DNA from: a virus
Lineage: Duplodnaviria; Heunggongvirae; Uroviricota; Caudoviricetes
DNA length: 36,679 bases
Virus record (IMG/VR): IMGVR_UViG_2579778919_000010
Reading direction: 5' to 3' (one strand)
Position 1 is the first letter of the stretch, and each line of letters begins with the position of its first letter. The notes beneath the pieces are model-generated. The model did not search any database, was not told where the DNA came from, and worked only from the letters and a program-made list of their open reading frames with translations. The translations under genes and the position numbers were made by a program. Below are positions 17,154-36,679 of the stretch, one piece after another.

Positions 17154-17356
17154 GGTGTTGTCCGGTCACGTTGTTTACTTCCGGACAGTGTGGGGGGGAA
17201 CGGGGATGCAGGTGGATTAACCGGCTTCACTGTAAACGCGGCATGAAACCGCGTTTAAAACACGTTTAAAAACGCTGTGGCGCGTTTAACGATTTTTTCA
17301 CGTGCCGTCATGACGTAATAATCGTTAATGCCGCCACGCGCGTTGTGGGATGGTTT
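17154..17356. promoter_or_regulatory. Near-central intergenic region with CGCGTTTAA-type repeats: candidate late promoter and/or strong gyrase site analogue
   Basis: Three direct copies (accgcgtttaaaac, acacgtttaaaaac, ggcgcgtttaacg) plus an inverted copy (taaacgcgg); a 7-bp inverted repeat TGTCCGG/CCGGACA just upstream of the I start; ~600 bp from the prophage midpoint. Confidence 0.4.
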
Positions 17357-21870: not shown

Positions 21871-22159
21871 TCTCCCTCCTCATACGTTCAAGGAAGTCAC
21901 GTTCAACGCTGGATTTGTCTTTCAGCAGCAACTTCCAGACGCGTTTGTATTCCGGGTTGCTGTTGAGGAATGTGTTCAGATACGAATCAGCGGATTCGGA
22001 GTTGTATTTTTTACCCGTCGATTTTTCAAACTGCGGTGCAATGGCTCTGACTTCAATTTCCGCACAGACGAGAATGGCGGCCATTTTCCGGATGATGTCG
22101 CGCTGGCTGCTGCTCAGTGGCTTAAGGGCTTTAGTCATGGCAGATGTTCTCCAGTTCAA
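21860..22159 (-). CDS. Hypothetical protein (Mu late-region small protein)
   Basis: ORF with coupled overlap to neighbours; probable start at MTKALKPL. Confidence 0.45.
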   Translation of the reverse strand: MNWRTSAMTKALKPLSSSQRDIIRKMAAILVCAEIEVRAIAPQFEKSTGKKYNSESADSYLNTFLNSNPEYKRVWKLLLKDKSSVERDFLERMRRENGK

Positions 22160-22511
22160 AAATACGCTCTGTCACATCGTTAATCGCATCCGTAAAACCA
22201 AATGCGCTGCTCCACTCAGGGGGCGCACCGGTTACAGCCTCATACATGCTGTCCAGTACGGCGATAACCTGATCGCGCTCTCCTATAAGCTGGGTTTCAG
22301 AGCGGTCCAACCGGGCAATGCCTTCCAGTGCTTTTTCATTTGCACTGATAAGGGAATCAATGATCACAGCGGCCTGAAAAAGCGCATTCGCTGACATGCC
22401 GATTTCACCGGACTCCCGACGCTCCGCCAGACCTGACAGGCGGCGCAACTGTTCCGCCTGCTGGCGGCAGGTCATTAACATTTGAAGTATTCTGGCCCGT
22501 TCCATCGTCAC
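22131..22511 (-). CDS. Hypothetical protein
   Basis: 126-aa ORF in the conserved strand block. Confidence 0.45.
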   Translation of the reverse strand: MTMERARILQMLMTCRQQAEQLRRLSGLAERRESGEIGMSANALFQAAVIIDSLISANEKALEGIARLDRSETQLIGERDQVIAVLDSMYEAVTGAPPEWSSAFGFTDAINDVTERIFELENICHD

Positions 22512-22801
22512 TCCCGCGCACGTGGTTTTTTGACGCCGGGGACCGTCGCCAGCCCAAAGGCCACATCTTCACCGCGTCCTGTGATGCCGGCGACGTAACA
22601 CCCGGAGACATCTGACAGGGTGACGAGTCCCTGTTCACGTAGCCACGCAAGGAGGGTGCGGACGGTGTCACGGGAAACCCGGTGGCCGTAGGTCTGGAGG
22701 CAGGTCTGTAGAATGGATTCGTTTGCACTGTCTCCGCACTCCACCAGTGAGCGCAGAATGACCAGACGCTGGTCGCTGTTGAGGATTTCTTGCATGCTCA
22801 T
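22508..22801 (-). CDS. Hypothetical winged-helix-like small protein
   Basis: 97 aa; not Mor/C-like by motif. Confidence 0.45.
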   Translation of the reverse strand: MSMQEILNSDQRLVILRSLVECGDSANESILQTCLQTYGHRVSRDTVRTLLAWLREQGLVTLSDVSGCYVAGITGRGEDVAFGLATVPGVKKPRARE

Positions 22802-22807
22802 AGCCTC

Positions 22808-23113
22808 TTAATTTTTTTCCTTCAGTTCGTTTTCCAGCAACAGATCGCTGATACGTGTGGCCTGCCGGAGCATTCCGGAGAACTCCCGTATTTCGCCGCG
22901 CAGGTTGCTCATATCCAGTTGCAACTGGTGGAGTTCCTGCCGTGACGGCATCCCGTCGATGGCCTTTTCAAGTGCACTCATCCGGCTGTTAACTTTCTCC
23001 ATCTCTTCCCGGCGGGCATAGGTTTTCACCAGCAGCAGGTGGATAATATTGATACCGGACATCAGTCCGGCCCAGATGACAGCCCAGTTACTTCTTACGG
23101 TTTCCCATTCCAT
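22808..23113 (-). CDS. Membrane-anchored coiled-coil protein (spanin or Mu gp25-like candidate)
   Basis: N-terminal hydrophobic helix (WAVIWAGLMSGINIIHLLLV) followed by a charged coiled coil. Confidence 0.45.
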   Translation of the reverse strand: MEWETVRSNWAVIWAGLMSGINIIHLLLVKTYARREEMEKVNSRMSALEKAIDGMPSRQELHQLQLDMSNLRGEIREFSGMLRQATRISDLLLENELKEKN

Positions 23114-23320
23114 TTATGCCGTCTCCCTGAGTGTCTGGCAGTCAATGCAGGTCACGGCATCCGGCATGGCCGCCAGTCGTTTCGGGTCAATTTCGTCACC
23201 ACAGTCGTTGCAGTGGTCTGGCGTGTCAGGAGATTCTTTAACCCTGTTTAACTGAGCATTTAATGCCCGTTCACGGTCTGCCATCTCAAGGCCGCTGGCC
23301 TTGTCCAGTTCATCCGTCAT
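23114..23320 (-). CDS. TraR/DksA-family C4 zinc-finger protein
   Basis: CNDCGDEI...CIDCQ, four Cys in a CxxC-N17-CxxC arrangement. Confidence 0.7.
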   Translation of the reverse strand: MTDELDKASGLEMADRERALNAQLNRVKESPDTPDHCNDCGDEIDPKRLAAMPDAVTCIDCQTLRETA

Positions 23321-23925
23321 CTACCCGCCGCCATCGTTTTGTGTTTGCTGGATTTGCTGTACCGGGCGAACCCGTCAAGGGTACGAAAACCAAGATACCC
23401 AAGCGCCGGTGTCGCCAGCATGAGTGCGATATCCCAGTCCGGTGATGGCATGGAGAAGGCATGACCAAAAGCACCGGATACCGCGCCAGCCTGCTGACCC
23501 ACAGACATCAGCATCACATACGCAATGCTGCTGTATAGCGACAGCCGGGCCATCAGCGGTCTGGTCTGACGGACATATTCATCCGTGGCGTTGTCCCCGT
23601 TACGGATGGTTTCCTGCTGTTCATGGTGGGCAGCCTGACGGTCAGCCAGTACGGCTTTGTCCCGCTCAAGCTGGAATTGTTCAATCTGGACCTTCAGGGA
23701 CTGGAGCTGGACGAACTGTTCTGGCGGCAGCGCCGCCAGTTTTTGCTCAAGCACCCGCTGCTGGTCCTGCGGGTTGATGACGCTGTTGACGTTCTCAACG
23801 ATCCCCGCCACAGAATCTGCCGTTCTGGCGGTGTCGCCACCGAACCAGCCGCCCACGGTACGCAGTAACGACGGTCCTGCCTTCATCAGAACGCTGGCAA
23901 CGGTAGAGATGGTTACTGGATCCAT
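23317..23925 (-). CDS. Lysis-region membrane protein (holin-like candidate)
   Basis: 202 aa with C-terminal hydrophobic segments. Confidence 0.4.
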   Translation of the reverse strand: MDPVTISTVASVLMKAGPSLLRTVGGWFGGDTARTADSVAGIVENVNSVINPQDQQRVLEQKLAALPPEQFVQLQSLKVQIEQFQLERDKAVLADRQAAHHEQQETIRNGDNATDEYVRQTRPLMARLSLYSSIAYVMLMSVGQQAGAVSGAFGHAFSMPSPDWDIALMLATPALGYLGFRTLDGFARYSKSSKHKTMAAGR

Positions 23926-24320
23926 GCAAGAAGCCCCTTACGTTCAACCCACATACAGAAAAGAACGCCGATTGCAGCACCCACTGGTGTAAGAAGAATC
24001 AGGTATAACGGGGTGGCATATAGCTGGCTCAGAATGAGAAGAAAACCGCCTACAACCCAGATGACCCACGCCCAGAAACGGGCATGCCGGCTGATATGCA
24101 TTTCAGGTTTAAGAAGCCTGTACGGAAGATTGCCAAGAAAGATACTGAATCCGATCAGAACCACGCCGGAGAGTGCCAGCCACCAGACCATAAATGCCTG
24201 GCGGCCTGAGAAACTACAGATGAACAGCGACAGGCCGACGAGAATGACAATGCTCCATCCGGAGCGCAAAACCTGTACCAGTGCCAGCCTTAACCAGTCG
24301 CAGCTAAACGATTTAAACAT
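23913..24320 (-). CDS. Multi-pass membrane protein (lysis region)
   Basis: Probable start MFKSFSCDW; 3-4 predicted hydrophobic helices; ORF track extends it to 24452. Confidence 0.45.
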   Translation of the reverse strand: MFKSFSCDWLRLALVQVLRSGWSIVILVGLSLFICSFSGRQAFMVWWLALSGVVLIGFSIFLGNLPYRLLKPEMHISRHARFWAWVIWVVGGFLLILSQLYATPLYLILLTPVGAAIGVLFCMWVERKGLLAWIQ

Positions 24321-24531
24321 TGTGTTTTTCCTTGTATCGCTGGCATTGCCAGACGATGTCTCTGATATCGACGGATGACCAGCCGCGCATGTAGTAACTG
24401 GCGTGTGTACCGTCATGACCTGCATAACTTGTCGGAACGGGGACGGGGCCACCTGCTATTCGGTGAAGAACTTCCTGCCTCAGCCGGTCACGTCGTCCCT
24501 GTTTCAGCGAAGCGTCCCATCCCTTGCCCAT
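24313..24531 (-). CDS. Hypothetical small protein downstream of the endolysin
   Basis: 72-aa ORF coupled to the endolysin stop. Confidence 0.35.
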   Translation of the reverse strand: MGKGWDASLKQGRRDRLRQEVLHRIAGGPVPVPTSYAGHDGTHASYYMRGWSSVDIRDIVWQCQRYKEKHNV

Positions 24532-24532
24532 A

Positions 24533-25123
24533 TCAGCTCCGGGCTACCGAATAGCGGACACCGGAAATCTCACGACAGGCGTCAGCGAGGTTGTCAAGGC
24601 GGTTAAACCAGCCGTTGAGGAACTTGCCCTGCGAAGAGTTTGCTTTGATGATGTCGGCGTAATAGCGGGAACGTTGCAGAAACAAACGGTTCAGCAGCCA
24701 GTCAGGGTCAGCACGCTCAACGGCTGCACGGGTGTTTTTACCGGCGATACCGTCAACGCTTTTGCCAGTGAAACCCACAGCTTCCTGAAGCAACTGGACA
24801 GCCTTTTTGACGCCATGCTGGACGGCAGAATCAAAGACAAACAGGGCGATATCATCCGGCCATAACTGGCAATACGCCGGATACCAGTAGTCACGGAAGT
24901 AAATCTGTCCGGCCTGTTCAACCGTTAAATCACGAATACGAGTATCAGGCTTGCCATCGCCATTAACGTCGGTCATGCCATCGGCAACACCGTCGCGTTT
25001 ATCTGATATACCGAAGTTAGTTTCACCGCCACGGTCAGTGGGGTCATTGACATATCCGCGTTCTGCGCTGAGCACGAAAGCAAGAGCATTGCGAAATGCG
25101 GGAGAATCGGGGGTGTTGTTCAT
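24533..25123 (-). CDS. lys: Endolysin, GH108 lysozyme domain with C-terminal peptidoglycan-binding domain
   Basis: ERGYVNDPTDRGGETNFGI signature of GH108 and a C-terminal GWFNRL-type PG-binding region. Confidence 0.8.
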   Translation of the reverse strand: MNNTPDSPAFRNALAFVLSAERGYVNDPTDRGGETNFGISDKRDGVADGMTDVNGDGKPDTRIRDLTVEQAGQIYFRDYWYPAYCQLWPDDIALFVFDSAVQHGVKKAVQLLQEAVGFTGKSVDGIAGKNTRAAVERADPDWLLNRLFLQRSRYYADIIKANSSQGKFLNGWFNRLDNLADACREISGVRYSVARS

Positions 25124-25176
25124 AAAACGGCACCTTTGGAAGTGGGTTAGATTTCCCTTCCATCATGTGCCGGACG

Positions 25177-25201
25177 AAAAAAAAGCCGGATTAACCGGCT
25201 T
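25177..25201 (-). terminator. Intrinsic terminator downstream of the AT-rich moron
   Basis: On the minus strand: stem AAGCCGG / loop TTAAT / CCGGCTT followed by an 8-U run (plus strand: aaaaaaaa-gccggattaaccggctt). Confidence 0.65.
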
Positions 25202-25219
25202 CATTGTATTGGCTATAAC

Positions 25220-25543
25220 TTAATAGAATAAATAATCTTTGTAGCGATAGAGCAACCATCCTGATACCAACAAAAGTAGAATAATAAAACTTACGCTTTT
25301 ATCAGTCTTTACTGGATATTCTTCCGCAGCGATCAATAAAGATTTCCTGTTGATCAGATACCAAATAAAAGGAAGTATAAATATACTCAGCGCAGCCCAA
25401 ACCACAGGGTGTATGCCTCTGCGACATCCTTTTCGCACACCGTCTCTAACAACATAACTTCCTATGTTGTTAGAAGTAGCATCAAAGAAAACCCAAAAAA
25501 CACATATAATACAAACTATGTTAATAACAATCACACCAACCAT
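25220..25543 (-). CDS. Small hydrophobic membrane protein encoded in a markedly AT-rich block (moron / cargo)
   Basis: 107 aa with ~3 hydrophobic helices; composition clearly lower in GC than flanking phage genes; own terminator; occupies the mor-lys interval. Confidence 0.6.
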   Translation of the reverse strand: MVGVIVINIVCIICVFWVFFDATSNNIGSYVVRDGVRKGCRRGIHPVVWAALSIFILPFIWYLINRKSLLIAAEEYPVKTDKSVSFIILLLLVSGWLLYRYKDYLFY

Positions 25544-25547
25544 ATTA

Positions 25548-25955
25548 TCACTCCATATTAAATGAGAGCTGCCTCTTACCTTGCTCTAACTTTCGCATTC
25601 TCCGGATTGCTTTATACACCGTTTTATAGGTAACACGGTAACGCTCAACCAACTCTGTGATGTTTCTGCCATTGAAATCACGCCAGATTTTCATATCACG
25701 AATCAATGACTCAAGAGTCTGGCCGCGTGGAAAATAAATCTGCATTCCACCAATCTGACAGCTAATCGCATAGACCAGCTCCAGAGAGATTCGTGGGTCA
25801 ACACCATGCTTTGTCAGTTCGCCACGCAACAGCGTATTCAGTTCTGTCAGCAGTGCAGGGAAACGCACAGTTTCCGCCGAACTGTCATCGTCCAGGTGCT
25901 CCAGAATGCTGTCATCCTGGATATCACCAAACAGGTCATTCTGCTTTTCGCTCAT
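25548..25955 (-). CDS. mor: Middle operon regulator Mor
   Basis: DLFGDIQDDSILEHL...RFPALLTELNTLLRGEL...IRDMKIWRDFNGRNITELVERYRVTYKTVYKAIRRMR closely matches Mu Mor as recalled. Confidence 0.9.
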   Translation of the reverse strand: MSEKQNDLFGDIQDDSILEHLDDDSSAETVRFPALLTELNTLLRGELTKHGVDPRISLELVYAISCQIGGMQIYFPRGQTLESLIRDMKIWRDFNGRNITELVERYRVTYKTVYKAIRRMRKLEQGKRQLSFNME

Positions 25956-26479
25956 GTGCGCACCTTTCTTACTTTACTGGAATACAGGCTGTTGATGGCG
26001 TCATAACCCCGATTATCCTGAAATGCCAGGTCTCGCGGACTCAGCGCCTCTGTCATTTCTCTCAGGTGCCATTGCTTGAGGCTTTCCAGCACCATCAGAA
26101 GATTATCGCCACGGCACCATGCCAGGCTGGCGATACCTTTACCTTTGTTGGTTCTGACAGTCATCTTCGCGACGAACGAATCGAGTGAGGTATCGCTGCC
26201 ATCACGGATAAACCCATCAAGATGCATCTGCCGCCAGATGCTGCGGACCTTTGCGGTGATATCTGTCTCACGATGACGGCGAGCCGGAGAACGGGGACGG
26301 GTACGAATGAAACCCTTATCCTCCAGTACCTTCAGCACATCCTCCAGTTGGCCGACTCTCAGGTCACGACAGCTTTGCTTTCCCGTCACTCGCATCAGTA
26401 CAGAGCGGTAGGTGTCATCGTCCAGTTGTAGATTGCGACGGGCAACATGGATTAACTTAATCAGGGATGCGCGGCTCAT
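25952..26479 (-). CDS. gemA: GemA-like regulatory protein (Mu gp16 family)
   Basis: MSRASLIKLIHVARR... N-terminus; position just upstream of mor. ORF track extends to 26524. Confidence 0.7.
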   Translation of the reverse strand: MSRASLIKLIHVARRNLQLDDDTYRSVLMRVTGKQSCRDLRVGQLEDVLKVLEDKGFIRTRPRSPARRHRETDITAKVRSIWRQMHLDGFIRDGSDTSLDSFVAKMTVRTNKGKGIASLAWCRGDNLLMVLESLKQWHLREMTEALSPRDLAFQDNRGYDAINSLYSSKVRKVRT

Positions 26480-27128
26480 CGTTATTTCCCTCCGACTGGC
26501 GGTCAATACGCTCAATTTCTGCAATCAAAAGCGCACATGCTTTCACTAAATTTCGACGATAGTCTGACGGTTTGAAACTGTCATCATGCCAGTCAGCAGG
26601 CCAGTATTCTTCAGCCGCCAAAGGCTCTATGTAACTTATAGCCGCTGCGGCCAGCTCACCTTCAATATATGTGTCGTCCTGCTGTGTAGTGTACCCCTTA
26701 ACCGATATCTGCCGCTGGCGCTCGGCCAGAACATCAGATGCTGCTGGTGACAGTGAAAACGATGGAAGTGCGGCCCTAATAGCTTTGCCCAGATCGTCGT
26801 TTTTCTTTTCCAGGCATTCGATACGGTCTGCCTGCTGATTGATGTGATCGTCCTGGGCGGTGTTAGTGCGTTCCTGCTCAGCTATGCGTTTTTGGGCCTT
26901 GACCAGTTCATCCGCCAGTGTCCATTCTGATTTTGACAGGACGTCTATTTCACCCAGCAACAATTCCACGACTTCAAGAGTGAAACTGCGCTGGGTCTCA
27001 TTGATAGTTTTAAGACGATTAATACTGGTATCGGGGCCAAATGGCGGCATTGCTTTACGTTTGCAGATATCGTCACGTATCTGCTGGATATTGATAATCG
27101 TATGCCTGGTCATTCGCTTAAACTCCAT
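26457..27128 (-). CDS. Hypothetical early protein
   Basis: ORF in the semi-essential region; start uncertain (27167, 27128 or 27113). Confidence 0.4.
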   Translation of the reverse strand: MEFKRMTRHTIINIQQIRDDICKRKAMPPFGPDTSINRLKTINETQRSFTLEVVELLLGEIDVLSKSEWTLADELVKAQKRIAEQERTNTAQDDHINQQADRIECLEKKNDDLGKAIRAALPSFSLSPAASDVLAERQRQISVKGYTTQQDDTYIEGELAAAAISYIEPLAAEEYWPADWHDDSFKPSDYRRNLVKACALLIAEIERIDRQSEGNNDEPRIPD

Positions 27129-27202
27129 ATTTAGTTGCCTGCGGGTGCACGAAGCCCCGGCAGGCATACCGTATTAAAATTCTGAGAATCAAAGAAAGTT
27201 AA

Positions 27203-27730
27203 TTAATCAGTTACAGTTTGTTCAAATGGGATTATTTCAAAATCCTCAACATCTGATTTAATGGATATCCCTGCAATTCCCTTAACTTCATTCGGTGATG
27301 CAAGAATTGCCTCTTTATTAATTTCCTCTTTATTGCGAAGAAATTTACCCAGGCTGAATTTCTTGAGTAACGCAATAACATCTTCAACTTTGCGAATGGT
27401 GACGCTGGGCGGGCGCTTACGCCAGCGAACTTCGCCCGTTGTCAGGTTGGCCGTCTTGGTCTTACCGTCTTTCGTAAGCTCTGCACGGTTGGCTTCACAC
27501 CACGTCTGGACGCCAGTTTGTAAGCGGCCCAGCTCTTTCTTGAGCGCTTCAATTCCGGGAGCGGCGTCGTTAGTCAGCTCGGCCAGTTTGTCATTCAGTT
27601 CTGTTTCACGGCGCAAAATGACACGGGTGATGTCGCCAATTTTTCGGATATCGTTAATCACGTCTTCACGTGACTGCGGAACGGCCACTGCCGCAGCAGA
27701 CTTGGCTCGTGGTTTTTTAGGTGCTTTCAT
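27203..27730 (-). CDS. gam: Host-nuclease inhibitor Gam (Mu Gam / Ku-like DNA end-binding protein)
   Basis: KSAAAVAVPQSREDVINDIRKIGD...GVQTWCEANRAELT...TANLTTGEVRWRKRPPSV...FIPFEQ matches Mu Gam as recalled. Confidence 0.9.
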   Translation of the reverse strand: MKAPKKPRAKSAAAVAVPQSREDVINDIRKIGDITRVILRRETELNDKLAELTNDAAPGIEALKKELGRLQTGVQTWCEANRAELTKDGKTKTANLTTGEVRWRKRPPSVTIRKVEDVIALLKKFSLGKFLRNKEEINKEAILASPNEVKGIAGISIKSDVEDFEIIPFEQTVTD

Positions 27731-27737
27731 ATCAACC

Positions 27738-27989
27738 TCAGTGTTTGATTATTTTACGGTTATCCTGCTCCACCCTTGCTTTCACAAACGTGGTGACCTG
27801 CTGGATCGCCATCGGGAAAATAGCTGACAGACCTTCAGCAACCAGAAACGAAAATGAACCATCATCATTTGTGTTATTAAGATGAAACTGAATATTGAGT
27901 TTCCCTTCAGGTAGTTCGTTATTAATTGATTTGTCACTTTTCTGAACGATGCCATCCTCAATGACAATGGTGATAACCTGTTTAGCCAT
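27738..27989 (-). CDS. Hypothetical early protein
   Basis: 83-aa ORF in operon context. Confidence 0.4.
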   Translation of the reverse strand: MAKQVITIVIEDGIVQKSDKSINNELPEGKLNIQFHLNNTNDDGSFSFLVAEGLSAIFPMAIQQVTTFVKARVEQDNRKIIKH

Positions 27990-27993
27990 TGTT

Positions 27994-28269
27994 TTAATCC
28001 TTATTCAGTAATGCGCGTTCAACATAAAAACAGAACTTTGTCAGAGCCACTCCGGCTTCGTTCTGGGTGGCTGCTTCAGGAATCCCCGGAACCAGTAGCT
28101 GCCCAGGGGCATATCCGTGGCGTGCGTAAACATTTATGACCTCCCGGAGCCGCTTGTGATGACGGGCGCTCGCGATAGGTAAAGCGCCTTCCGGGAGTGT
28201 CTGACCAAATTCAATCAGCCCGCTGGCCCACGCATAAGCGATTAATATTGATTGCTGTTTCTCAGTCAT
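27994..28269 (-). CDS. Hypothetical early protein
   Basis: 91-aa ORF in operon context. Confidence 0.4.
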   Translation of the reverse strand: MTEKQQSILIAYAWASGLIEFGQTLPEGALPIASARHHKRLREVINVYARHGYAPGQLLVPGIPEAATQNEAGVALTKFCFYVERALLNKD

Positions 28270-28283
28270 AAAAAACCTTTAAG

Positions 28284-28574
28284 TTAGCTGTCGCGATAAA
28301 CGATGTTAAAAACCTGACGACGGGACATTTCCATTTTTTCTGCGATGATCGCAACGGTCAGCCCCTCCTTATAAAGCTCACGGCATAAATACGCATCATG
28401 CTCGTCCTCTGTACGAATACGCAGTGACAGTCCAAGACGAAGAGCGCAATTCTGAACGGACTGTTTTGTACGTCCCAGTTGCTGAGCCAGCCCGATAACA
28501 CTGACTTTCCCTGCACTCTGCTCAAGAATGCGAAGCTCTTCGGGGGACCATGTTTTACCCGTTCTCCACCCCAT
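28284..28574 (-). CDS. Small HTH-containing early protein
   Basis: Start at MGWRTGKTW preceded by GGAGGT; HTH-like segments LAQQLGRTKQSVQNCALRLG and LTVAIIAEKMEMSRRQVFNIV. Confidence 0.5.
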   Translation of the reverse strand: MGWRTGKTWSPEELRILEQSAGKVSVIGLAQQLGRTKQSVQNCALRLGLSLRIRTEDEHDAYLCRELYKEGLTVAIIAEKMEMSRRQVFNIVYRDS

Positions 28575-28576
28575 GC

Positions 28577-28816
28577 TTACCTCCAGATAATCCGGCAACC
28601 TTCCAGACTGGCGACCCAGACGGAGCGGGTGCCACCGTTGTGTGATTCAGCAATGCGCTCTGCGCTGTTAAGCAGCTCAACCGGCGGGCAGGCAATCTCC
28701 AGCAGCGGGCGACGCATAAACACCCGAACGTCAGTCACGCGACTGCCACGCGCACGCAGCCAGTTCTGCGCCGCTTCTGCCATGCTGATGTGCTCTGCAA
28801 TACGTTCGGCGATCAT
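28577..28816 (-). CDS. Small early protein in the position of Mu kil
   Basis: ATG 4 nt after the B stop with GGAGAGGAG upstream; 79 aa; function not recognised. Confidence 0.4.
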   Translation of the reverse strand: MIAERIAEHISMAEAAQNWLRARGSRVTDVRVFMRRPLLEIACPPVELLNSAERIAESHNGGTRSVWVASLEGCRIIWR

Positions 28817-28820
28817 GATG

Positions 28821-29759
28821 TCACTCCTCTCCGATACCGCTGTGGCCCAGCTCCAGCATGGCGGACTGGATGTGCGCCGTGCCAATGGTCTCACCCTTGC
28901 CCTGAGCGTAAATTCCGGCCAGCGGCAGGATGTGCGACAGAGAACGCAGCGCCCCCGGACGTCGGGCGATAGCCTTCAGCAGCTTGCGTTCGTCAGCGCC
29001 GGTGACCTGCCAGGCATCGCAGAAGCTGTCCACGTCACCAGCGGAAACGGTATTGATGACGTACTTCTTGGACACGCGGGAGAACAGGCGGGCAAAATCC
29101 ACGCTGCGCTGGCCGCCGGTAAGACGGTCATAGACCTTGTGGTTACCCACCAGTGCCAGCCCCACGCCACATTCCTCCTGGAGAATACGCAGCTCTTCCA
29201 CCGCATCCAGACTCAGCCAGTCGGCTTCATCCACCACTATCAGGCCGCGCGTGTCCGGCAGACGCTGGCGCAGCAGGCGAGAGAGTGCACCACGGCGGTA
29301 TGGCGCATCGCTGATGCCCATTTTCAGGGCCAGTTCATACAGGGTCTCCAGCTCATTGCTGCGGGATTTGCTGGCGGTGATGTGCCAGACGTTATTACCG
29401 CCTGCGGCATACTGCCGGATAGCCTTTGTCTTACCCACGCCCGGATTGCCGTAAACCAGCACAATCGTCCCGGCCAGCTGCGCCCACGTCAGGGTGGCGA
29501 GGATTTTCTGAGAGGTCGGTGTCTCAACGAAATCAGGGGCCACCGGAAGCGTGGTTTTCGCGGCGTTGTGACTTTCAAGCCAGGTATTCAGGCTGGCAGC
29601 TACGGTGTCATTGTCACCTTTGTATTTCCCGTTCAGGAACTGTGAAACCGTCGCGGTTGATGTACCGGTCTCACGCGCCAGCGCTGCACCGGAAATCGTC
29701 TTGCTGTCGATAAGTTCACGAATGGCACTGCGCACAACATCATGGTTAATTTGCGTCAT
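28821..29759 (-). CDS. B: Transposition protein B (AAA+ ATPase, target DNA activator)
   Basis: 312 aa with Walker A GNPGVGKT and Walker B LIVVDEAD; N-terminal HTH; directly downstream of A. Confidence 0.93.
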   Translation of the reverse strand: MTQINHDVVRSAIRELIDSKTISGAALARETGTSTATVSQFLNGKYKGDNDTVAASLNTWLESHNAAKTTLPVAPDFVETPTSQKILATLTWAQLAGTIVLVYGNPGVGKTKAIRQYAAGGNNVWHITASKSRSNELETLYELALKMGISDAPYRRGALSRLLRQRLPDTRGLIVVDEADWLSLDAVEELRILQEECGVGLALVGNHKVYDRLTGGQRSVDFARLFSRVSKKYVINTVSAGDVDSFCDAWQVTGADERKLLKAIARRPGALRSLSHILPLAGIYAQGKGETIGTAHIQSAMLELGHSGIGEE

Positions 29760-29854
29760 GATTATTAATCCTGTATTTTTTAAATGGCCTGTAATTATTC
29801 AGGTGTTAAAACTGATTCACTTAATTCAGAAGCGGCGCTCACTACGTCGCTTTT

Positions 29855-31837
29855 TTATTTCCGTGCCTGTTTAGCCTTATTAACAAACTGCTGGAAAATA
29901 ACGTCGTTTTCGCTCTGCGTTTCCTGTATGTCCTCCACGCGCTTGACGGTGTTGCCCAGGGTAAATACACGCTCCACCACATGCCGCTCCGGCAGTTCTG
30001 CATGCTCAGTCTTCGGCAGCAGGTCATTCACCTCAATCGCCGTCATACGGTTCAGAGCCTTAGTCGCTTTCTTCGTACTCTTGATCATCTCGCGGCGTGC
30101 ACGGTTGTGTTCACGTCCAGCCTCGGTATCGCCAAAGGCCACGGCGGCACGACACTCAGCCATGCAAAGGAAACGGCCGTCGAGGTCATAACAGGCGACT
30201 TCTCCGTGCAGGTTCCTTGGATCAAACCGGACGGTGATTTTGCGCGAGCGGTGGCTGACGAGCTGTTCACTCCAGTAAGTATTCTTACGGCCAAATAACG
30301 AGCCCCCGCACTCCATCGTAAATTCGCCTGTAGTCTTCACGCGTACAGCTTCCGCAGGCAGCATCAGTTGACGAATTTGCTCTTCGGTCATACGGGTGAT
30401 GACTGACTGGCTGTAGCTGCGCTCAAACGCCTGGTCGAAGGACAGTTCCCCCCGGCACATCTCGGTCTCGCGCCCGGCCTTCGCGTTGAACATGGCGACA
30501 CCTTCGCTGATGGTTTCCAGGAATGTATCCACATCCACCGCCCGGCTGCCGTAGTTCTCTGGCTTGGAGCTGACGTTTTCACCGGCAAATGCTCCAGCCA
30601 GCGCAGGATGTTTGTCGATATATTCGCCCAGACCGCCCACGCCGAAGGCACGTTCAACGGGCTTTGCCTGTCCCCAGCCCTTACCGCCAATCACCCCCGT
30701 CCAGTGCAGCTTCATTCCCAGCAGAGGGATGATCCCCATCGGGTCATCAGGTTTGACTTTGAAGCGGTAACGGTTAGGAACGCCACCGGACAGCCATTTA
30801 TTTGCAGCAGCGCGGGTGTTATCGATGGTCACATGTTTAGGCTTACCGTAAGCGCGGATGGTATCCATCAGGGATAAACGGATGCTGTCACTGTTCTCCG
30901 ACAAATCAGCACGCCAGCCAATAATTTTGCGACTGTGGACATCCTGCCAGAACCACGTTTTAGGACGGATGATGTCGCCGTTAAACCAACGGACAAACAC
31001 GTTGTGCTGGTAACCGTCGCCATTGATCCACTCCATCGCATGAAGATATGCCACGGTGCGCTGCTGCGACGGATACATCTGCGCCAGCGCGTTCTCGCCC
31101 TCACGGGTGGCAACGACGATACGCGGATCAACTTCACGTTCTAGCTTGCGGCGCAGAGTGCGCTCAGCGGGAATAATCCAGCCATGAGCATCTGCCGCCT
31201 TTTCAAGGCGCTCATAGCTTTTGGAGAAGAACGGCGCTTCGTTTCGCAGATAATCGCCCAGGAAGAACTGCCAGGCATCTTCAGAGATATCGGCAGTCCG
31301 GCCAGTCTGACGTTTTTCACGCACACGGCGGTCAAGCAGTACCGGACCCCAGAGGTCAGGACTATGGTCTTTGACTTTGTAGTAAAGATTGCGCAGCGTA
31401 CCTTCACTGATTTGCAGCTGTTTTGCTGCCAGCGTGATCGCCTTACGATTGCCGATGCCGGAAGCCATCAGTTCCGCCACCAGCGCGGCAGCTTTAGTCC
31501 GGCGTTCTGCATGCAGACGCTGCTCGCCGGTAGCTTTCTCCCATGCAGACCACAGTCGCTGGCGTTCCAGATCGTCAGCCGCCACGCGCTCAGGCTCCTG
31601 TGGCAATGTAATCAGCCCGGATGATGTTTCAATCAGGCCACGTGCGGCCAGCAGTTCAGCGCGGACTTCAGGTGGCAACACCGATATGTGGTATTCGAAT
31701 GCTTTGGTGCCAGCACGTTTACGGCGTAGTTCACTACGTCCACTGACAAAAGACTCCAAATGTTTTCTGACGTTCTTTTCTGCATTAGGAAAAGAACAAA
31801 TTCCTACGCATTCTTTTGCGGTAACCCAGAAATCCAT
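29855..31837 (-). CDS. A: Mu-type DDE transposase A
   Basis: 660 aa; long collinear similarity to MuA as recalled ([36 protein letters not shown]..., [19 protein letters not shown]..., LLPAEAV...). Confidence 0.95.
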   Translation of the reverse strand: [660 protein letters not shown]

Positions 31838-32073
31838 TATGCAACCTCTTTGACTGATACAGCTTCATAACGTGAGGGCCAAATATCTCTGGGGGTAAGC
31901 CCCAGAAACTCAGCAATAATTTTTTCCCCTTTCGGCCAGTGGTGGCGGAATACATTTCGTAATGTTGATTCCGCTAATCCGTTGCTTCTGGAGAGCTGAC
32001 TGGTAGTCATCCCACGTTTCCTAATCGCTGCTTTGATGTCTTCCGGGTGCCAGTCTTGGCTTTTGGTCATCAT
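31837..32073 (-). CDS. ner: Ner-like DNA-binding early regulator
   Basis: 78 aa; DWHPEDIKAAIRKRGMT...HHWPKGEKIIAEFLGLTPRDIWPSRY matches Mu Ner as recalled; stop overlaps the A start. Confidence 0.9.
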   Translation of the reverse strand: MMTKSQDWHPEDIKAAIRKRGMTTSQLSRSNGLAESTLRNVFRHHWPKGEKIIAEFLGLTPRDIWPSRYEAVSVKEVA

Positions 32074-32302
32074 TCTGCGATCCTTAAATGTTTACACGTT
32101 CAGGTCAGCAATATCGCTAACCACTACGAGTAAAGATTAGAACACAAAAGAACGAAAGTAAATACTTTTGCGTACTTTTATGGTTGATGAGGTTAACCAT
32201 GATATTTTATTTAAAATCAAATCGTTACTTGATTTTCCGTGGTTAATCACAAAAAAGTACCAGATGTATTTTTCAATAACACAGAAAAGTACGGTGAATG
32301 AT
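32074..32302. promoter_or_regulatory. Early operator / divergent promoter region between ner and c
   Basis: AT-rich; repeated TACTTTT / AAAGTA elements (cgaaagtaaatacttttgcgtacttttatgg, aaaagtaccag, gaaaagtacgg) resembling Mu repressor-binding repeats. Confidence 0.55.
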
Positions 32303-32767
32303 ATGGTTGATTTTAGTGAATGGGTGTCAGTTCAGGATTGTATTGGTCTACCAGGTTTCCCCAGTGGAGCGCCGAATGTCCGGCGGAAACTGGAACAACT
32401 TGTGAGTAATAATCCTAAGTTGAAACGTAAGAAGGCTAAATCGAAAGCATATGAATATCATGTATCGGTCTTGCCAGAAGAAACAAAGAAATTCTTGGGG
32501 GTAGAAGAGCGCTCAGTTATACCTGACTCAGCCTTATCGTCACCAAGCTCAACAGCTCGGGACCTATGGATAATGCTTTTCGACAACTTAACAGAGCGTC
32601 AAAAACAGTATGTTATTAAGGTTTTCATGCAAGGTGGGCTGAACGCTTTAATGCCGATGGTAGCTGATTTGGAAGCCAGTGCAGATAGAGAGATTTTTGA
32701 ACAACGTGATCCCAATGAACAGATTCAAGCCGCGCCGAAGCTGAGCACGCGAAATAAAGCTGGCTGA
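32303..32767 (+). CDS. c: Repressor c (Repc-like), with N-terminal DNA-binding domain paralogous to the transposase N-terminus
   Basis: DFSEWVSVQDCIGLPGFPSGAPNVRRKLEQL...AKSKAYEYHVSVLPEE parallels the A N-terminus [29 protein letters not shown]...[14 protein letters not shown]. Start uncertain: 32168, 32264 and 32303 are all in frame; upstream candidates overlap operator-like repeats. Confidence 0.65.
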   Translation: MVDFSEWVSVQDCIGLPGFPSGAPNVRRKLEQLVSNNPKLKRKKAKSKAYEYHVSVLPEETKKFLGVEERSVIPDSALSSPSSTARDLWIMLFDNLTERQKQYVIKVFMQGGLNALMPMVADLEASADREIFEQRDPNEQIQAAPKLSTRNKAG

Positions 32768-33064
32768 TTGCAAAAGTGCTCAATTGGCTGGCTTTACCTT
32801 CGCACCTCCTGTGGGCATTTTAAGCTGAGTTTAAATCCCGTTAAACGCTTTGAAATTAACTGCTATACGATCCAAATCTATGTGACACTTAACTGGCTTC
32901 GCTATCGAATGATCCAAAATTGACGATATGCCAGATTTTCCACAAGTCGAGTAGCTTAACGTTGTGCGAAGCCTCACAACTCAAGCCTTCCTCCCGTTAA
33001 TTCCCATGAATTCCCGGTTATTCCCGGGTTCTCTGTTTGATCCATACATCACTGTCACTAGTCA
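32768..33064. promoter_or_regulatory. Prophage left-end (attL-like) terminal region
   Basis: Non-coding stretch between the c stop and the inferred CA terminus; contains three exactly 10-bp-phased ATTCCC repeats (33000, 33010, 33020) and GATCCAAA(T/A) repeats. Confidence 0.45.
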
Positions 33065-33069
33065 CTGGG
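33065..33069. repeat. Target-site duplication CTGGG, copy next to the prophage left (L) end
   Basis: Identical to 169-173; follows CA at 33063-33064. Confidence 0.6.
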
Positions 33070-33832
33070 CGATGAAATTCAGCACAAGAGTTTTTTGGGG
33101 GCGCTGGCAGGGGCCGTACTGGGGGCGATAGTGACCATCGCAGAAGGTTGCCTGATTATGGCCGCCTGTGCCACCGGCCCTTATGCGCTGGTTCTGGTGC
33201 CTGCGCTGATGTATGCCAGCTATAAGGCGAGTGATTATGTGGAGGAGAAACAGAACCAGCTTGAATCATGGATAAACAGCTTTTGTGACACGGACGGCGC
33301 CATCAATACCGGTTCTGAAAACGTAAAAATTAACGGCGAGCTGGCCGCACGTGCAGCGGTCACCCTTCCCCCTCCTCCCCCACCTGGAGCAATACCTGAA
33401 GTCCCACAGGGGGAACCCTCATGGGGTGATATTGCCACTGACCTGCTTGAATCGGCAGCGGAAAAAGCAGTACCACTGGCGAAGGCCTGGGGGAACGCTG
33501 TTATCACCCTGACGGACAGCAATGCCGGTTTTATGGATCGCGTCAGCGCCGGCGCATCGCTTCTGTTTCCCGCCGGTCCGGTATTAATGGAGTTTGCCAC
33601 CATGGTGGGCGGGCGTGGCGAAATCAAAAAAGAGGTGGATTTCCCGGAAGCCGGTGAGGACACGGCGCTCTGCGACAAGGAGAACAAACCACCGAGGATA
33701 GGCGCGATCACTTTCATCTACTCCGTTACAAAGCGAGGCTGGGTATTTCCCGGCCTTTCTGTTATCAGAAATCCACTGAAAGCACAGCGGCTGGCTGAGG
33801 CGATAAATAATAAACGGGGGCTGTATGACTGA
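33070..33832 (+). pseudogene. 3' part of the split gene: hydrophobic helices, a PAAR-like motif and a C-terminal domain of unknown function
   Basis: Frame open from the junction (DEIQHKSFLGALAGAVLGAIVTIAEGCLIMAACATGPYALVLVPALMY...NVKINGELAARAAV...PPPPPPG...); the ORF track shows only the TTG-initiated part from 33095; stop overlaps the dam-like start by 8 nt. Confidence 0.6.
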
Positions 33833-34382
33833 TTTCACCGGAAGCAATACTCCTGCCGAACATCGCGACAGCTGGCGCACACCACCAGAGATTTTTGCTG
33901 CGCTTAATGCAGAGTTCGTTTTTCAACTTGATGCTGCCGCCAGCGAAAAAAACCGACTATGTCGGCTTTTTATCTCACAGGAGCAGAACACATTAACCAC
34001 TTCATGGCCTGAAGCAATGGGATATGCCTCTGGTTATGTCTGGTTGAATCCACCATACAGCAATATTTCCCCTTTTGTGAAAAAGGCAGCCACTGAAAAC
34101 AAATTCAGTAGTGTGGGATGTGTAATGTTATTGCCTGCTGACACATCTGTCGGATGGTTTCATGAAGCGATACAAACCGCCAGTGAGGTCAGATTCATCA
34201 CGGCAGGACGACTGGCATTTATTAACCCACTCACTGAGAAACCCGTCAGTGGAAATAATAAAGGCTCGATGCTCATTATCTGGCACCCATACCCCCGTAC
34301 ACACTGCCACTTTACGACCGTTGATCGTGGAGAGTTGATGGCGTTCGGCTCAAGGATTCTTGCCCGTCGGGAGGCTGCATGA
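33825..34382 (+). CDS. Phage-type DNA N6-adenine methyltransferase (Dam family)
   Basis: WRTPPEIF...LDAAAS...VWLNPPYS (NPPY motif IV)...LLPADTSVGWF; 185 aa. Confidence 0.8.
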   Translation: MTDFTGSNTPAEHRDSWRTPPEIFAALNAEFVFQLDAAASEKNRLCRLFISQEQNTLTTSWPEAMGYASGYVWLNPPYSNISPFVKKAATENKFSSVGCVMLLPADTSVGWFHEAIQTASEVRFITAGRLAFINPLTEKPVSGNNKGSMLIIWHPYPRTHCHFTTVDRGELMAFGSRILARREAA

Positions 34383-34462
34383 CAACCACGGAATGCATTT
34401 TTCTGGCAGCGGGCTTCATATTCTGTGTGCTTATGCTTGCCGACATGGGACTTGTTCAATGA
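34379..34462 (+). CDS. Putative 27-aa hydrophobic peptide, translationally coupled on both sides
   Basis: ATGACAACCACGGAATGCATTTTTCTGGCAGCGGGCTTCATATTCTGTGTGCTTATGCTTGCCGACATGGGACTTGTTCAATGA encodes MTTTECIFLAAGFIFCVLMLADMGLVQ; ATGA overlaps with the dam stop and with the next start. Confidence 0.4.
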   Translation: MTTTECIFLAAGFIFCVLMLADMGLVQ

Positions 34463-34674
34463 CACCTCAGCAGGAAAACGCCCTTCGCAGCATTGCCCGT
34501 CAGGCTAATTCTGAAATCAAAAAAGCCAGACAGCAGTTTCCGGATAAAAACGTCGATGACATTTGCCGTAGCGTACTTAAGAAGCACCGCGAAACGGTAA
34601 CGCTGATGGGATTCACACCGACTCATTTAAGCCTGGCGATCGGCATGTTAAACGGCGTCTTTAAGGAACGGTGA
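34459..34674 (+). CDS. Hypothetical small protein
   Basis: Start MTPQQENALRSIARQ... coupled to the upstream peptide; ORF track extends it 5' to 34360. Confidence 0.5.
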   Translation: MTPQQENALRSIARQANSEIKKARQQFPDKNVDDICRSVLKKHRETVTLMGFTPTHLSLAIGMLNGVFKER

Positions 34675-34772
34675 ACATGAAAAGCAAAATCATCAGGGAG
34701 CTACAGGCTCCTTTTTTATTGTTCGCATTCATCCTCAAGCGTATTAACCAACAATTCAGGGATTAATGGAAG

Positions 34773-34991
34773 ATGGCAGACATCATTGATTCAGCATCAG
34801 AAATCGAAGAATTACAGCGCAATACAGCAATAAAAATGCGTCGTCAGAACTACCAGACTGTATCCGCAACTCATTGTTGTGAGTGTGGCGATCCGATAGA
34901 TGAGCGAAGACGCCTGGCTGTTCAGGGTTGTCGGACTTGTGCAAGTTGCCAGGAGGAGATCGAACTTAAGAACAAACAATGGGGACTGTGA
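34773..34991 (+). CDS. TraR/DksA-family C4 zinc-finger protein
   Basis: CCECGDPIDERRR...CRTCASCQ, a four-cysteine zinc-finger arrangement. Confidence 0.75.
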   Translation: MADIIDSASEIEELQRNTAIKMRRQNYQTVSATHCCECGDPIDERRRLAVQGCRTCASCQEEIELKNKQWGL

Positions 34992-35038: not shown

Positions 35039-35317
35039 ATGTTCAGAATCATTTTTCCTAACACCTGGTACGTCGACCACCACGGCACTCCCTGCAAAAT
35101 CCTGCGTTCTACCCACAACAAAGTTCACTACATCCGAAAAGGCAGAACATGTATCGCCAGCATGTTCCGCTTTAATCATGACTTTGAACCTGTGAATAAA
35201 GCTGATGCAGATCGGATAGCAGAAGAGATCGAAACGGCAGAACACATTAAGAAGTTACGTGACATGCGTTCAAAAAGCAGAGGTAACCATGGAATCATAC
35301 AGCCTCACACTCGATGA
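35039..35317 (+). CDS. Hypothetical protein
   Basis: 92-aa ORF upstream of xis. Confidence 0.45.
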   Translation: MFRIIFPNTWYVDHHGTPCKILRSTHNKVHYIRKGRTCIASMFRFNHDFEPVNKADADRIAEEIETAEHIKKLRDMRSKSRGNHGIIQPHTR

Positions 35318-35660
35318 GGCCTGTCAGTTTCTTAAGATATCCAGACCAACCGCCACCAACTGGATACGAACAGGCCGCCTACAGGCAACACGTAAAGATC
35401 CAACCAAGCCAAAATCTCCTTACCTCACAACACGGCAAGCCTGCATTGCGGCGCTTCAGTCTCCGCTGCATACTGTCCAGGTGAGCGCGGGTGATGGCAT
35501 AACAGAGGAAAGAAAATGTCACTCTTCCGCAGAAATGAAATATGGTATGCCTCGTATTCGCTCCCGGGCGGGAAACGAATTAAGGAATCTCTTGGCACAA
35601 AGGACAAGCGGCAAGCTCAGGAGTTGCACGACAAGCGAAAAGCAGAACTCTGGCGAGTAG
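35289..35660 (+). CDS. xis: Excisionase-like DNA-binding protein
   Basis: [37 protein letters not shown]... HTH; directly upstream of and overlapping int. The 3' end is uncertain because the frame runs 145 nt into int. Confidence 0.6.
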
Positions 35661-36679
35661 AAAAGCTAGGGGATTTACCTGATGTCACTTTTGAAGAGGC
35701 CTGCCTAAGATGGCTTGAGGAAAAAGCTGATAAAAAATCTCTCGATTCAGATAAAAGCCGGATTGAGTTCTGGCTTGAACATTTTGAGGGTATAAGGCTT
35801 AAAGATATCTCGGAGGCAAAGATTTACTCTGCTGTAAGCAGAATGCATAACAGAAAGACGAAAGAAATATGGAAACAGAAAGTTCAGGCCGCCATCAGGA
35901 AAGGTAAAGAACTGCCTGTTTATGAACCAAAGCCAGTATCAACTCAGACAAAGGCAAAGCATCTTGCCATGATAAAGGCCATTCTCCGTGCTGCAGAACG
36001 CGACTGGAAGTGGCTGGAAAAAGCGCCTGTCATCAAGATACCAGCGGTCAGAAACAAGCGAGTCAGATGGCTGGAAAAGGAGGAAGCAAAACGCCTTATT
36101 GATGAGTGCCCCGAACCACTGAAATCTGTCGTCAAGTTTGCGCTGGCAACTGGTCTGAGAAAGTCGAACATCATAAATCTGGAATGGCAACAAATCGACA
36201 TGCAGCGACGAGTTGCCTGGGTGAATCCAGAAGAGAGCAAATCAAACCGCGCCATTGGTGTGGCGCTGAACGATACCGCCTGTAAAGTGTTGCGTGATCA
36301 AATAGGCAAGCATCACAAATGGGTGTTTGTACATACCAAGGCGGCTAAGCGAGCAGATGGAACATCAACGCCTGCGGTCAGGAAGATGCGCATCGACAGC
36401 AAGACATCATGGCTATCAGCTTGTCGTCGTGCAGGAATTGAAGATTTCCGTTTCCATGACCTCAGACACACCTGGGCAAGCTGGCTGATTCAGTCAGGCG
36501 TCCCATTATCAGTGCTTCAGGAAATGGGCGGATGGGAGTCCATAGAAATGGTTCGTAGGTATGCTCACCTTGCGCCTAATCATTTGACAGAGCATGCGAG
36601 GAAAATAGACGACATTTTTGGTGATAATGTCCCAAATATGTCCCACTCTGGAATTATGGAGGATATAAAGAAGGCGTAA
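35516..36679 (+). CDS. int: Tyrosine integrase (phage lambda-family; resembles the DLP12 IntD lineage as recalled)
   Basis: 387 aa; catalytic motifs ...[41 protein letters not shown]...; window ends at its stop codon. Confidence 0.9.

Follow-up and report, generated by a model that had tools for sequence, protein, structure and literature searches.

Small single-pass membrane proteins that act as accessory subunits include KdpF (29 amino acids), AcrZ (49 amino acids), CydX (37 amino acids) and MgtS (31 amino acids). The subject of this report is a 27-codon open reading frame (ORF) whose predicted product resembles these proteins. It lies in the exo-xis block of a lambdoid prophage remnant, between a gene for a DNA adenine methyltransferase (dam) and orf61, within a stretch of 36,679 nucleotides of Caudoviricetes DNA (IMG/VR record IMGVR_UViG_2579778919_000010) that is referred to below as the window. 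The 27-residue peptide is like all four subunits in its length, its predicted single hydrophobic helix and its position inside an operon, and it shares with KdpF the feature of having few or no basic residues. It differs from them in that it has no sequence similarity to any of them, is phage-borne and is flanked by genes for soluble proteins instead of those for a membrane complex, and its membrane location is a prediction.

Two further groups of known systems invite comparison. Type I toxins such as Hok, Ibs, TisB, Ldr and ShoB are also hydrophobic peptides of fewer than 50 amino acids encoded on mobile elements. Unlike them, the 27-codon ORF has no supported antisense RNA, no promoter or leader of its own and no RNA fold for repression, and it appears to be coupled inside a polycistron. 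With termination-reinitiation coupling at ATGA and TGATG overlaps (Huber et al. 2019), the ORF shares 4-nt overlaps of start and stop codons, in its case on both sides; its own coupling, however, is deduced from anatomy.

A further comparison is with the exo-xis region of bacteriophage lambda itself. Lambda is the reference temperate phage, and exo-xis is among the few parts of it that are still poorly understood; the same block is carried by Shiga-toxin (Stx) phages, where it influences prophage induction. The published list of exo-xis genes comprises orf60a, orf63, orf61, orf73, ea22, ea8.5 and two peptides of 7 and 31 amino acids derived from ribosome profiling (PMC8614690), and the 27-codon ORF is not mentioned in it. 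The 31-residue member, orf2313, was added through ribosome profiling according to Liu et al. 2013 as cited in PMC8614690. Both small ORFs belong to the same operon, both are unannotated and both are overlap-coupled. They differ in that orf2313 is reported from ribosome profiling but shows a weak and non-significant selection signal here, whereas the 27-codon ORF is clearly selected but is missing from the list, where the annotated orf61 presumably concealed it. As annotated, orf61 of lambda and of the Stx phages has the DNA, the operon and the early expression in common with the 27-codon ORF, while the reading frame differs.

Anatomy, selection and distribution of the 27-codon ORF

In lambda-like phages, the 27-codon ORF is very probably a true gene that has been overlooked. 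It is likely to be a genuine, unannotated and translationally coupled member of the exo-xis block, and its product is best regarded as a putative single-pass microprotein of the inner membrane. The anatomy of the locus provides the first line of evidence (Table 1). A preliminary description made from the letters of the window had claimed that stops and starts overlap at each joint of the block, and all three overlaps are present. The 8-nt overlap ATGACTGA at 33825-33832 contains the TGA (33830-33832) of an ORF at 33095-33832 and the ATG (33825) of the 185-residue dam ORF. An ATGA at 34379-34382 then combines the stop of dam (34380-34382) with the start of the 27-codon ORF (34379), and a second ATGA at 34459-34462 combines the stop of the latter (34460-34462) with the start of a 71-residue orf61 (34459). 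The peptide reads MTTTECIFLAAGFIFCVLMLADMGLVQ, exactly as first given. Taken as a chain, orf63 or dam, the 27-codon ORF, orf61 and a 31-codon ORF are connected by an (A/G)TGA overlap at every link.

An open frame of 27 codons is unremarkable by itself and has roughly a one-in-four probability of arising by chance. Its start signal was evaluated by duplex formation with the 3' end of 16S rRNA. The Shine-Dalgarno sequence of the ORF reaches -10.3 kcal/mol in the dam-type arrangement seen here and -5.6 kcal/mol in the arrangement with orf63 upstream; about 1% of the ATGs on the plus strand of the window score -9 kcal/mol or better. The ATG that opens the 5' extension of the annotated orf61, equivalent to position 34393 of the window, scores only -1.5 and -3.8 kcal/mol. 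The core of orf61 has -3.9 and -4.7 kcal/mol where the small ORF precedes it and -5.6 kcal/mol (GAGG) where the small ORF is absent. Folding of positions 34350-34500 against shuffled sequences gave no sign of a stable RNA structure that might compete with a coding function (z = +0.81). The ORF has neither a promoter nor a leader of its own, as its start lies inside the upstream stop codon and a promoter scan of 32000-35600 found no sigma-70-like site on the plus strand. An antisense promoter is likewise not supported, as the one promoter-like site near the ORF on the minus strand lies within what chance would give, with three such sites found against 4.8 expected from shuffles.

The composition of the peptide is strongly hydrophobic. 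Its grand average of hydropathy is 1.62, which places it among the highest 1.3% when the 154 small ATG-initiated ORFs of the window are ranked. A core of 16 residues, CIFLAAGFIFCVLMLA, has a Kyte-Doolittle mean of 2.81 and is flanked by Glu5 and Asp22; a window of 21 residues averages 2.42 on the same scale, yet includes Asp22.

Selection on the coding frame provides the second line of evidence. For this analysis, loci were pooled from IMG/VR, metagenomes, GTDB and annotated records, 340 in total, and all substitutions in the 81 nt were tabulated; the test itself used 290 loci representing 28 haplotypes, and the ORF read in its own frame offers 18.3 synonymous and 59.7 non-synonymous sites. 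Among all variants, 13 are synonymous and 13 non-synonymous, corresponding to a ratio of non-synonymous to synonymous rates (dN/dS) of 0.31 (binomial p = 0.003). When variants are restricted to those found in at least two loci, the counts are 10 and 5 and the ratio is 0.15 (p = 0.0005). For the same frame, permuting the changes with mutation types left intact returns p = 0.005-0.02. All seven common variants are synonymous changes at third positions, and each of the ten synonymous polymorphic sites falls on a third codon position of the 27-codon frame. Synonymous variants reach 9-144 loci, and those that change an amino acid are singletons or otherwise rare. When these nucleotides are translated in the frame of the orf61 extension, dN/dS is 0.97-1.29, and in the third frame it is 0.70-0.99, neither of which is significant. 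The recurrent changes in the extension frame are radical and include His to Tyr on three occasions, Cys to Tyr, Gly to Arg and Ser to Cys. The 27-codon frame is under purifying selection equal to that on its accepted neighbours, the orf61 core (0.22-0.30) and orf73 (0.25-0.34), and the extension frame is under none. The second small ORF of 31 codons has a ratio of 0.40-0.59, which is not significant.

The third line of evidence is distribution. An identical ORF is present in lambda (NC_001416, complement 30925-31008), and copies are found in 175 phage records that include lambda, 434, 21, 933W and VT2-Sakai. Among complete Escherichia coli genomes, 3142 of 5426 (58%) carry the ORF in up to five copies each, about 4,255 copies altogether, with BL21/NEBExpress, ATCC 8739 and ATCC 25922 among the carriers. 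In BL21 and NEBExpress the copy is of the dam type and lies in DLP12. When phages of the dam type and the orf63 type are compared, homology starts exactly at the ATGA. The exact fit from ATGA to ATGA is seen in 288 of 288 loci behind these two unrelated upstream genes, with the stop codon of orf63 or dam overlapping the ATG in every scored case; in this tally the upstream overlap was scored directly and the stop codon of the ORF was read from the haplotype list, and a later tally covers 290 loci. No insertion or deletion occurs in the ORF among the 28 haplotypes, and frameshifted copies are confined to low-coverage or error-prone contigs (L221, L007 and L008). The last codon is replaced by a stop (Q27stop) in three loci, shortening the peptide by one residue, and the stop is lost in one. 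The preliminary description had looked to homologous regions for the fate of this frame, and there it is kept, in 290 loci and under purifying selection.

Several database matches require separate comment. Two proteins that appeared to be 51-52% identical to the peptide (P0104 and P0110) are reads of the same gene that contain frameshifts and numerous errors. Matches in Shewanella, Bradyrhizobium, Paenibacillus and other genera were set aside as lambda-sized contigs that are probably contamination. Species-representative assemblies of Shewanella, Bradyrhizobium, Pseudomonas, Oceanobacillus, Kitasatospora and other taxa include contigs of about 48.4-48.5 kb with this region, which is also carried by 48,499-bp "plasmids" of Stenotrophomonas and Paenibacillus and by "Campylobacter phage CJLB-4". 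For such contigs in unrelated taxa, contamination with lambda control DNA or mislabelling is the likeliest origin. Two glycosyltransferase-like proteins of 428 amino acids (P0006 and P0007) share the 90%-identity cluster of the peptide, which looks like a clustering artefact.

That standard annotation would miss the peptide, as had been anticipated, is largely the case. RefSeq records annotated by the Prokaryotic Genome Annotation Pipeline (PGAP) leave a gap of 76 nt at the ORF in every record inspected, and the lambda reference as well as the hand-curated records of phages 434 and 21 omit it. A few GenBank assemblies and the UniRef entry A0A0A2SGE8 do, however, call a hypothetical protein. 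The absence of the gene from standard annotation presumably goes back to lambda orf61, which was annotated across it in what is very probably the wrong frame. The peptide sequence is also absent from the searchable full texts and the examined supplements of "The Cryptic Bacterial Microproteome" (Enterobacteriaceae).

The start of orf61 and the published orf61 phenotypes

Both the 61-residue orf61 product of lambda (NP_040613) and the 93-residue Orf61 of Stx phages read the DNA of the 27-codon ORF in another frame. The annotated gene covers the whole ORF in lambda and its nucleotides 15-84 in the Stx phages phi24B (vb_24B_7c) and 933W, where the 93-residue form consists of MHFSGSGLHILCAYACRHGTCS fused to MTPQQ... 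From the sequence comparisons, the real orf61 is very probably the 71-residue core, and the 5' extension that yields 61 amino acids in lambda and 93 in 933W and phi24B would be a mis-annotation. PGAP chose the 71-residue start at 34459. An orf61 variant that begins with MTIEHNN and has unrelated DNA upstream places its ATG at the identical codon. When the 93-residue form is modelled with AlphaFold, residues 1-20 have a predicted local distance difference test (pLDDT) score of 40-52 as opposed to 73-91 for the core, and published models left out residues 1-23 as inconsistent.

The lambda reference presents a special case. In a run of A residues (NC_001416, about 30870-30880; alignment column 243) it has one extra A relative to all wild lambdoid phages, and this frameshifts the orf61 core after 22 codons. 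The extra A explains the odd 61-residue annotation and the "truncated" look of lambda Orf61 in the literature. With the core frameshifted, the 27-codon ORF may therefore be the sole intact product of the lambda "orf61" interval.

Two identities given to Orf61 were not confirmed. Many RefSeq copies of the 71-residue protein bear the label "cell division protein ZapA", but the match to PF05164 reaches 16.1 bits against a cut-off of 23.8, and a Foldseek search of the Protein Data Bank (PDB) with a single-sequence AlphaFold model (pLDDT 73) returned no match with an E-value below 1; the name is probably wrong. The published suggestion of a homeodomain was not confirmed by the same model and search. 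Automated start calls at this locus can be unstable, as seen in E. coli FORC_082 (L336, 689-1386). In this strain, IS1 splits orf63 just upstream of the small ORF, the ATG of orf61 is replaced by GTG, and PGAP took an upstream in-frame ATG to give a protein of 83 amino acids.

These considerations bear on published genetics. Transcription of lambda "orf61" and ribosome footprints on it have been reported (PMC6213356), and the footprints are compatible with translation of the 27-codon ORF. Since the delta-orf61 mutants were built by replacing the annotated gene (PMC6213356), the 27-codon ORF was removed with it; published deletion and frameshift mutants both affect the stretch. Phenotypes ascribed to deletion of "orf61" consist of more lysogens, delayed induction and reduced adsorption of phi24B. 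The authors noted that there was no proof of a diffusible Orf61 product causing the phenotypes, and that over-expression led to insoluble aggregates (PMC6213356).

If the 27-codon ORF is a gene in its own right, orf61 is wrongly annotated at its 5' end, and the interval would encode proteins of 27 and 71 amino acids rather than one of 61 or 93. Structural models and two-hybrid constructs based on the 93- and 61-residue forms would then bear a non-native N-terminus, and each published phenotype of an orf61 deletion or frameshift would mix the effects of two genes. Given its presence in more than half of complete genomes, often in several copies, the peptide would also rank among the most widespread unannotated microproteins of E. 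coli. The consequences would be practical and local instead of conceptual, as an unnamed small gene of a familiar class, the overlap-coupled small hydrophobic proteins, does not constitute a new system. The interest is mainly due to the gene residing in lambda and Shiga-toxin phages, where it confounds published genetics.

Proposed role and competing explanations

From the features of the locus we infer translation, coupling, membrane insertion and a function of the peptide along the following lines. In intact phages, the 27-codon ORF would lie on the delayed-early transcript that starts at pL. Ribosomes ending the upstream gene, which is orf63 in lambda and Stx phages and dam in the window, would restart at the overlapping ATGA and produce a peptide with its hydrophobic core between two acidic residues. 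Termination at the second ATGA would be followed by a restart on orf61, which has a weak Shine-Dalgarno sequence of its own. Most likely, the peptide would then insert in the inner membrane as a single short helix and bind a larger host or phage membrane protein. In the window, the gene is probably silent cargo of a remnant that has lost pL. There is a slim chance that the peptide, as a functional inner-membrane microprotein of lambda and most lambdoid prophages, modulates the choice between lysis and lysogeny or the induction of the prophage by way of a membrane factor of the host, and that the "orf61" phenotypes are partly or wholly those of the peptide. Such a source of the phenotypes is especially plausible in lambda because its orf61 core is frameshifted. 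One concrete candidate for a partner is FtsH/HflKC, the membrane protease system controlling the stability of CII and CIII.

A number of observations weigh against a coupled membrane microprotein. Sixteen residues are short, if still plausible, for a membrane span, and as the peptide has no basic residue its topology is not predictable. Pfam, PHROGs and NCBIfam contain no family for the peptide, nor is a partner or phenotype attached to it. Identity among all copies is 90% or higher, and they occur only in lambdoid phages of the Escherichia type. Searches with Orf61 against 5.8 billion proteins, of GTDB genomes, and with the peptide by tblastn against phages and plasmids gave no distant homologues beyond such near-identical copies. 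The selection test consequently rests on 26 changes, and deep conservation of the ORF cannot be claimed. There are also lineages that do without it. In Escherichia sp. E1V33 (L092, 1435-1500), where the upstream gene encodes a DGQHR domain, a deletion of 14 nt destroys the small ORF and shifts the ATGA-coupled start into the frame of orf61, creating a 93-residue fusion of MTISSGGLHILCAYACRHGACS to MTHQ...; this configuration was not found in any complete E. coli genome. In phages with a DpdA-like gene of 250 codons upstream, orf61 is preceded by its own GAGG and the small ORF is missing. A DGQHR gene stands in for orf63, the small ORF and orf61 together in strain JS316. These three cases indicate that the 27-codon ORF is dispensable, exchangeable and not obligatorily paired with orf61.

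Other explanations of the stretch need to be set against this assignment. That it encodes the N-terminal extension of a 93-residue Orf61, leaving the 27-codon frame as an untranslated by-product, is very unlikely. Lambda NP_040613 and the proteins of phi24B and 933W are annotated accordingly, and publications on exo-xis follow that annotation. Protein databases contain many versions of 93 amino acids, the extension forms part of the phrog_303 profile, and the coupled ATG of E1V33 reads that frame straight into orf61. The extension frame, however, is unconstrained and accumulates recurrent radical changes, its ATG is nearly devoid of a Shine-Dalgarno sequence, its residues are modelled with low confidence or omitted, and the variant with unrelated upstream DNA keeps its ATG at the 71-residue start. 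It is harder still to credit that the stretch is a conserved non-coding linker or mosaic-boundary sequence that happens to be open. Its location precisely on the recombination boundary where one upstream cargo gene is exchanged for another would fit a linker, as would the ease with which a frame of this length arises by chance, but neither would account for synonymous polymorphism at third positions of a single frame in ten of ten cases, a strong and correctly placed Shine-Dalgarno sequence, exact start and stop overlaps at both ends, or a hydropathy near the top of all small ORFs in the window.

Two explanations accept translation of the ORF and differ as to its product. One is that the ORF acts only as a relay that passes ribosomes from the upstream gene to orf61, the peptide being without function. 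In keeping with a relay, ATGA overlaps occur on both sides in every tallied locus, the Shine-Dalgarno sequence of orf61 is weak with the small ORF and stronger without it, and some lineages do without the ORF; coupling by termination and reinitiation at overlaps of 4 nt is well established (Huber et al. 2019). A relay would need only an open frame, yet the amino acids are constrained to the same degree as those of orf61 and orf73, non-synonymous variants are rare where synonymous ones are frequent, and extreme hydrophobicity would be unneeded. This constraint on the amino acids makes a role purely as a relay less likely, and on balance improbable. The other is that the peptide is a membrane-damaging toxin of the type I kind or a dedicated host-killing or host-takeover factor, a role the preliminary description had raised for small membrane peptides in such regions. 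Its size and hydrophobicity recall peptides of the Ibs, Hok and TisB class, it is encoded in an early accessory region that in lambda also has Kil, CIII, Ral and Gam, and the aggregates formed by over-expressed "orf61" constructs might be read in the same sense (PMC6213356). Against a toxin stand the missing promoter and long leader, an antisense RNA that the promoter counts do not support, the lack of a stable mRNA fold and the lack of a cationic end. In addition, the gene is intact in thousands of cryptic remnants with no evident cognate antitoxin, and delta-orf61 phages, which are also without the 27-codon ORF, show normal lytic growth (PMC6213356). A toxin or takeover factor is an unlikely identity for the peptide.

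The surrounding prophage remnant and its cargo slot

BLAST comparison with complete E. coli genomes and phage records identifies the last part of the window (33.7-36.7 kb) as the integrase-proximal exo-xis block of a prophage of the lambda/DLP12 type at tRNA-Arg. The order of the block is orf60a', dam, the 27-codon ORF, the orf61 core, the 31-codon ORF with terminator t2, orf73, the DUF4222 gene, xis' and intD, and the intact phage PhiR30_1 has the same dam-type order directly after exo. The preliminary description had placed its operon near an integrase, without seeing that the region is lambda exo-xis or that the small ORF lies under the 5' part of orf61. A deletion left a prophage remnant of about 3 kb in the window and pL is gone; the block in this strain is probably silent or read only via run-through transcription.

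Table 1. Coordinates of features in the window (positions count from its first nucleotide).
Feature	Position	Strand	Evidence or remark
First 57 codons of a prePAAR/Rhs-family effector gene of the type VI secretion system (T6SS)	1..173	+	through left CTGGG (169-173)
Mu-like transposable prophage, 32.9 kb, inside the effector gene	174..33064	-	5'-TG...CA-3' ends
MuA transposase	29855-31837	-	PF02914, 372.7 bits, plus Mu DNA-binding domains
Effector gene resumed, N-terminal region rich in transmembrane segments	33065..33701	+	truncated at 33699-33701
orf60a (DUF1317) 3' part, about 44 codons	33699..33832	+	in-frame fusion to effector; PF07026 E=1.6e-22, phrog_1998
Phage N6-adenine DNA methyltransferase (Dam, T1/VT2-Dam type), 185 amino acids	33825..34382	+	PF05869 E=2.3e-56, full length
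Shine-Dalgarno GGAGG of the 27-codon ORF	34370..34374	+	within dam 3' end, 4 nt upstream of ATG
27-codon ORF, predicted hydrophobic microprotein MTTTECIFLAAGFIFCVLMLADMGLVQ	34379..34462	+	ATGA overlap at each end
orf61 core, 71 amino acids, helical	34459..34674	+	phrog_303 E=4.7e-36, profile positions 23-93
Second small ORF, 31 amino acids from GTG 34671 or 29 from ATG 34677	34671..34766	+	
Intrinsic terminator-like hairpin and T-run (t2), inside the 31-codon ORF	34695..34722	+	between orf61 and orf73
orf73, TraR/DksA-type zinc-finger protein	34773..34991	+	PF01258, phrog_54, TIGR02419
DUF4222 protein	35039..35317	+	PF13973, E=1.9e-19
Excisionase-like helix-turn-helix (HTH) remnant	35289..35354	+	PF12728 HTH_17; incomplete pseudogene in RefSeq
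intD-type tyrosine integrase adjoining tRNA-Arg (argU)	35516..36679	+	ORF; intD then tRNA-Arg annotated in NZ_LR536431 and others

Downstream of orf61, the second small ORF overlaps the orf61 stop through GTGA in the window and through ATGA in lambda, where its first codon is ATG. It probably corresponds to lambda orf2313. A terminator t2 has been predicted between orf61 and orf73 in both lambda and phi24B (PMC4195576). The product of orf73 in lambda is described as a TraR homologue that binds RNA polymerase (PMC9239242).

At its upstream end, the block meets foreign DNA. The preliminary description had included a split effector-like gene in the operon. A co-directional, tightly coupled block does exist, but the effector-like ORF is a chimera and no member of it. 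Window positions 1-173 are identical to the start of an Rhs pseudogene in NZ_LR536431 and to that of an intact effector with a "zincin-like metallopeptidase toxin domain" in strain STS73-1-E, where VgrG and a DcrB-related (Eag-type) gene lie directly upstream. The gene is interrupted by the Mu-like prophage, which is flanked by 5-bp direct repeats of CTGGG (169-173 and 33065-33069) representing the target-site duplication; MuA, a Ner-like gene and a repressor-like gene with a Mu DNA-binding domain adjoin the right-hand junction. The Mu-like prophage looks complete, and its insertion point is 57 codons into the Rhs-type effector gene. NZ_LR536431 lacks the Mu-like element and is the sole complete E. 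coli genome with this exact junction of effector and prophage remnant.

Beyond the insertion, the effector sequence resumes with 99.8% identity to the effector of NZ_CP162160, and the fragment is likewise 99.8% identical to the 5' 800 nt of the gene for WP_113396764.1. The remnant amounts to about 270 N-terminal codons and retains no intact PAAR, Rhs core or toxin domain; a Pfam search of the fragment in the window found no Rhs or PAAR match. In the alignment, effector sequence switches to phage sequence at 33699-33701 through a shared TAG microhomology. From there onward the sequence is identical to orf60a of the intact PhiR30_1, which is entered at about codon 11, and the product is the chimeric ORF of 245 amino acids at 33095-33832, whose residues 201-242 give the DUF1317 match. 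The in-frame fusion of the effector to the end of orf60a implies that the deletion took what followed in the effector gene together with almost all of the lambdoid prophage, pL included, or about 90% of a DLP12-like prophage. On this alignment evidence, the effector-like ORF is a junction artefact of the Mu-like insertion and the prophage deletion. The 8-nt overlap of orf60a and dam, which is identical in PhiR30_1, is the sole part of it native to the operon.

The methyltransferase noted in the preliminary description is confirmed as a phage Dam. Its translation scores 190.5 bits with PF05869 (cut-off 28.1), covering profile positions 1-168 of 169, and 165.6 bits with the equivalog TIGR01712 (cut-off 97.05), while the match to phrog_111 has E=1.5e-77. 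It also contains LNPPYS, in which NPPY represents the catalytic (D/N)PP(Y/F) motif. The assignment, predicted from profiles and motif, is solid. In most relatives, including lambda, 434, 21, 933W and VT2-Sakai, the place of dam is taken by orf63 (DUF1382). Between orf60a and orf61 lies a hot spot for cargo, a slot that may hold orf63/DUF1382, dam, the DpdA-like gene, which resembles queuine tRNA-ribosyltransferase, or a DGQHR-domain gene; examples are the window at 33825-34382, L003 at 2633-2824, L121 at 741-1493, L092 at 371-1438 and L340 at 733-1797. Since the Dam, DpdA-like and DGQHR cargo genes are all associated with DNA modification, the slot may be an anti-restriction or self-protection locus.

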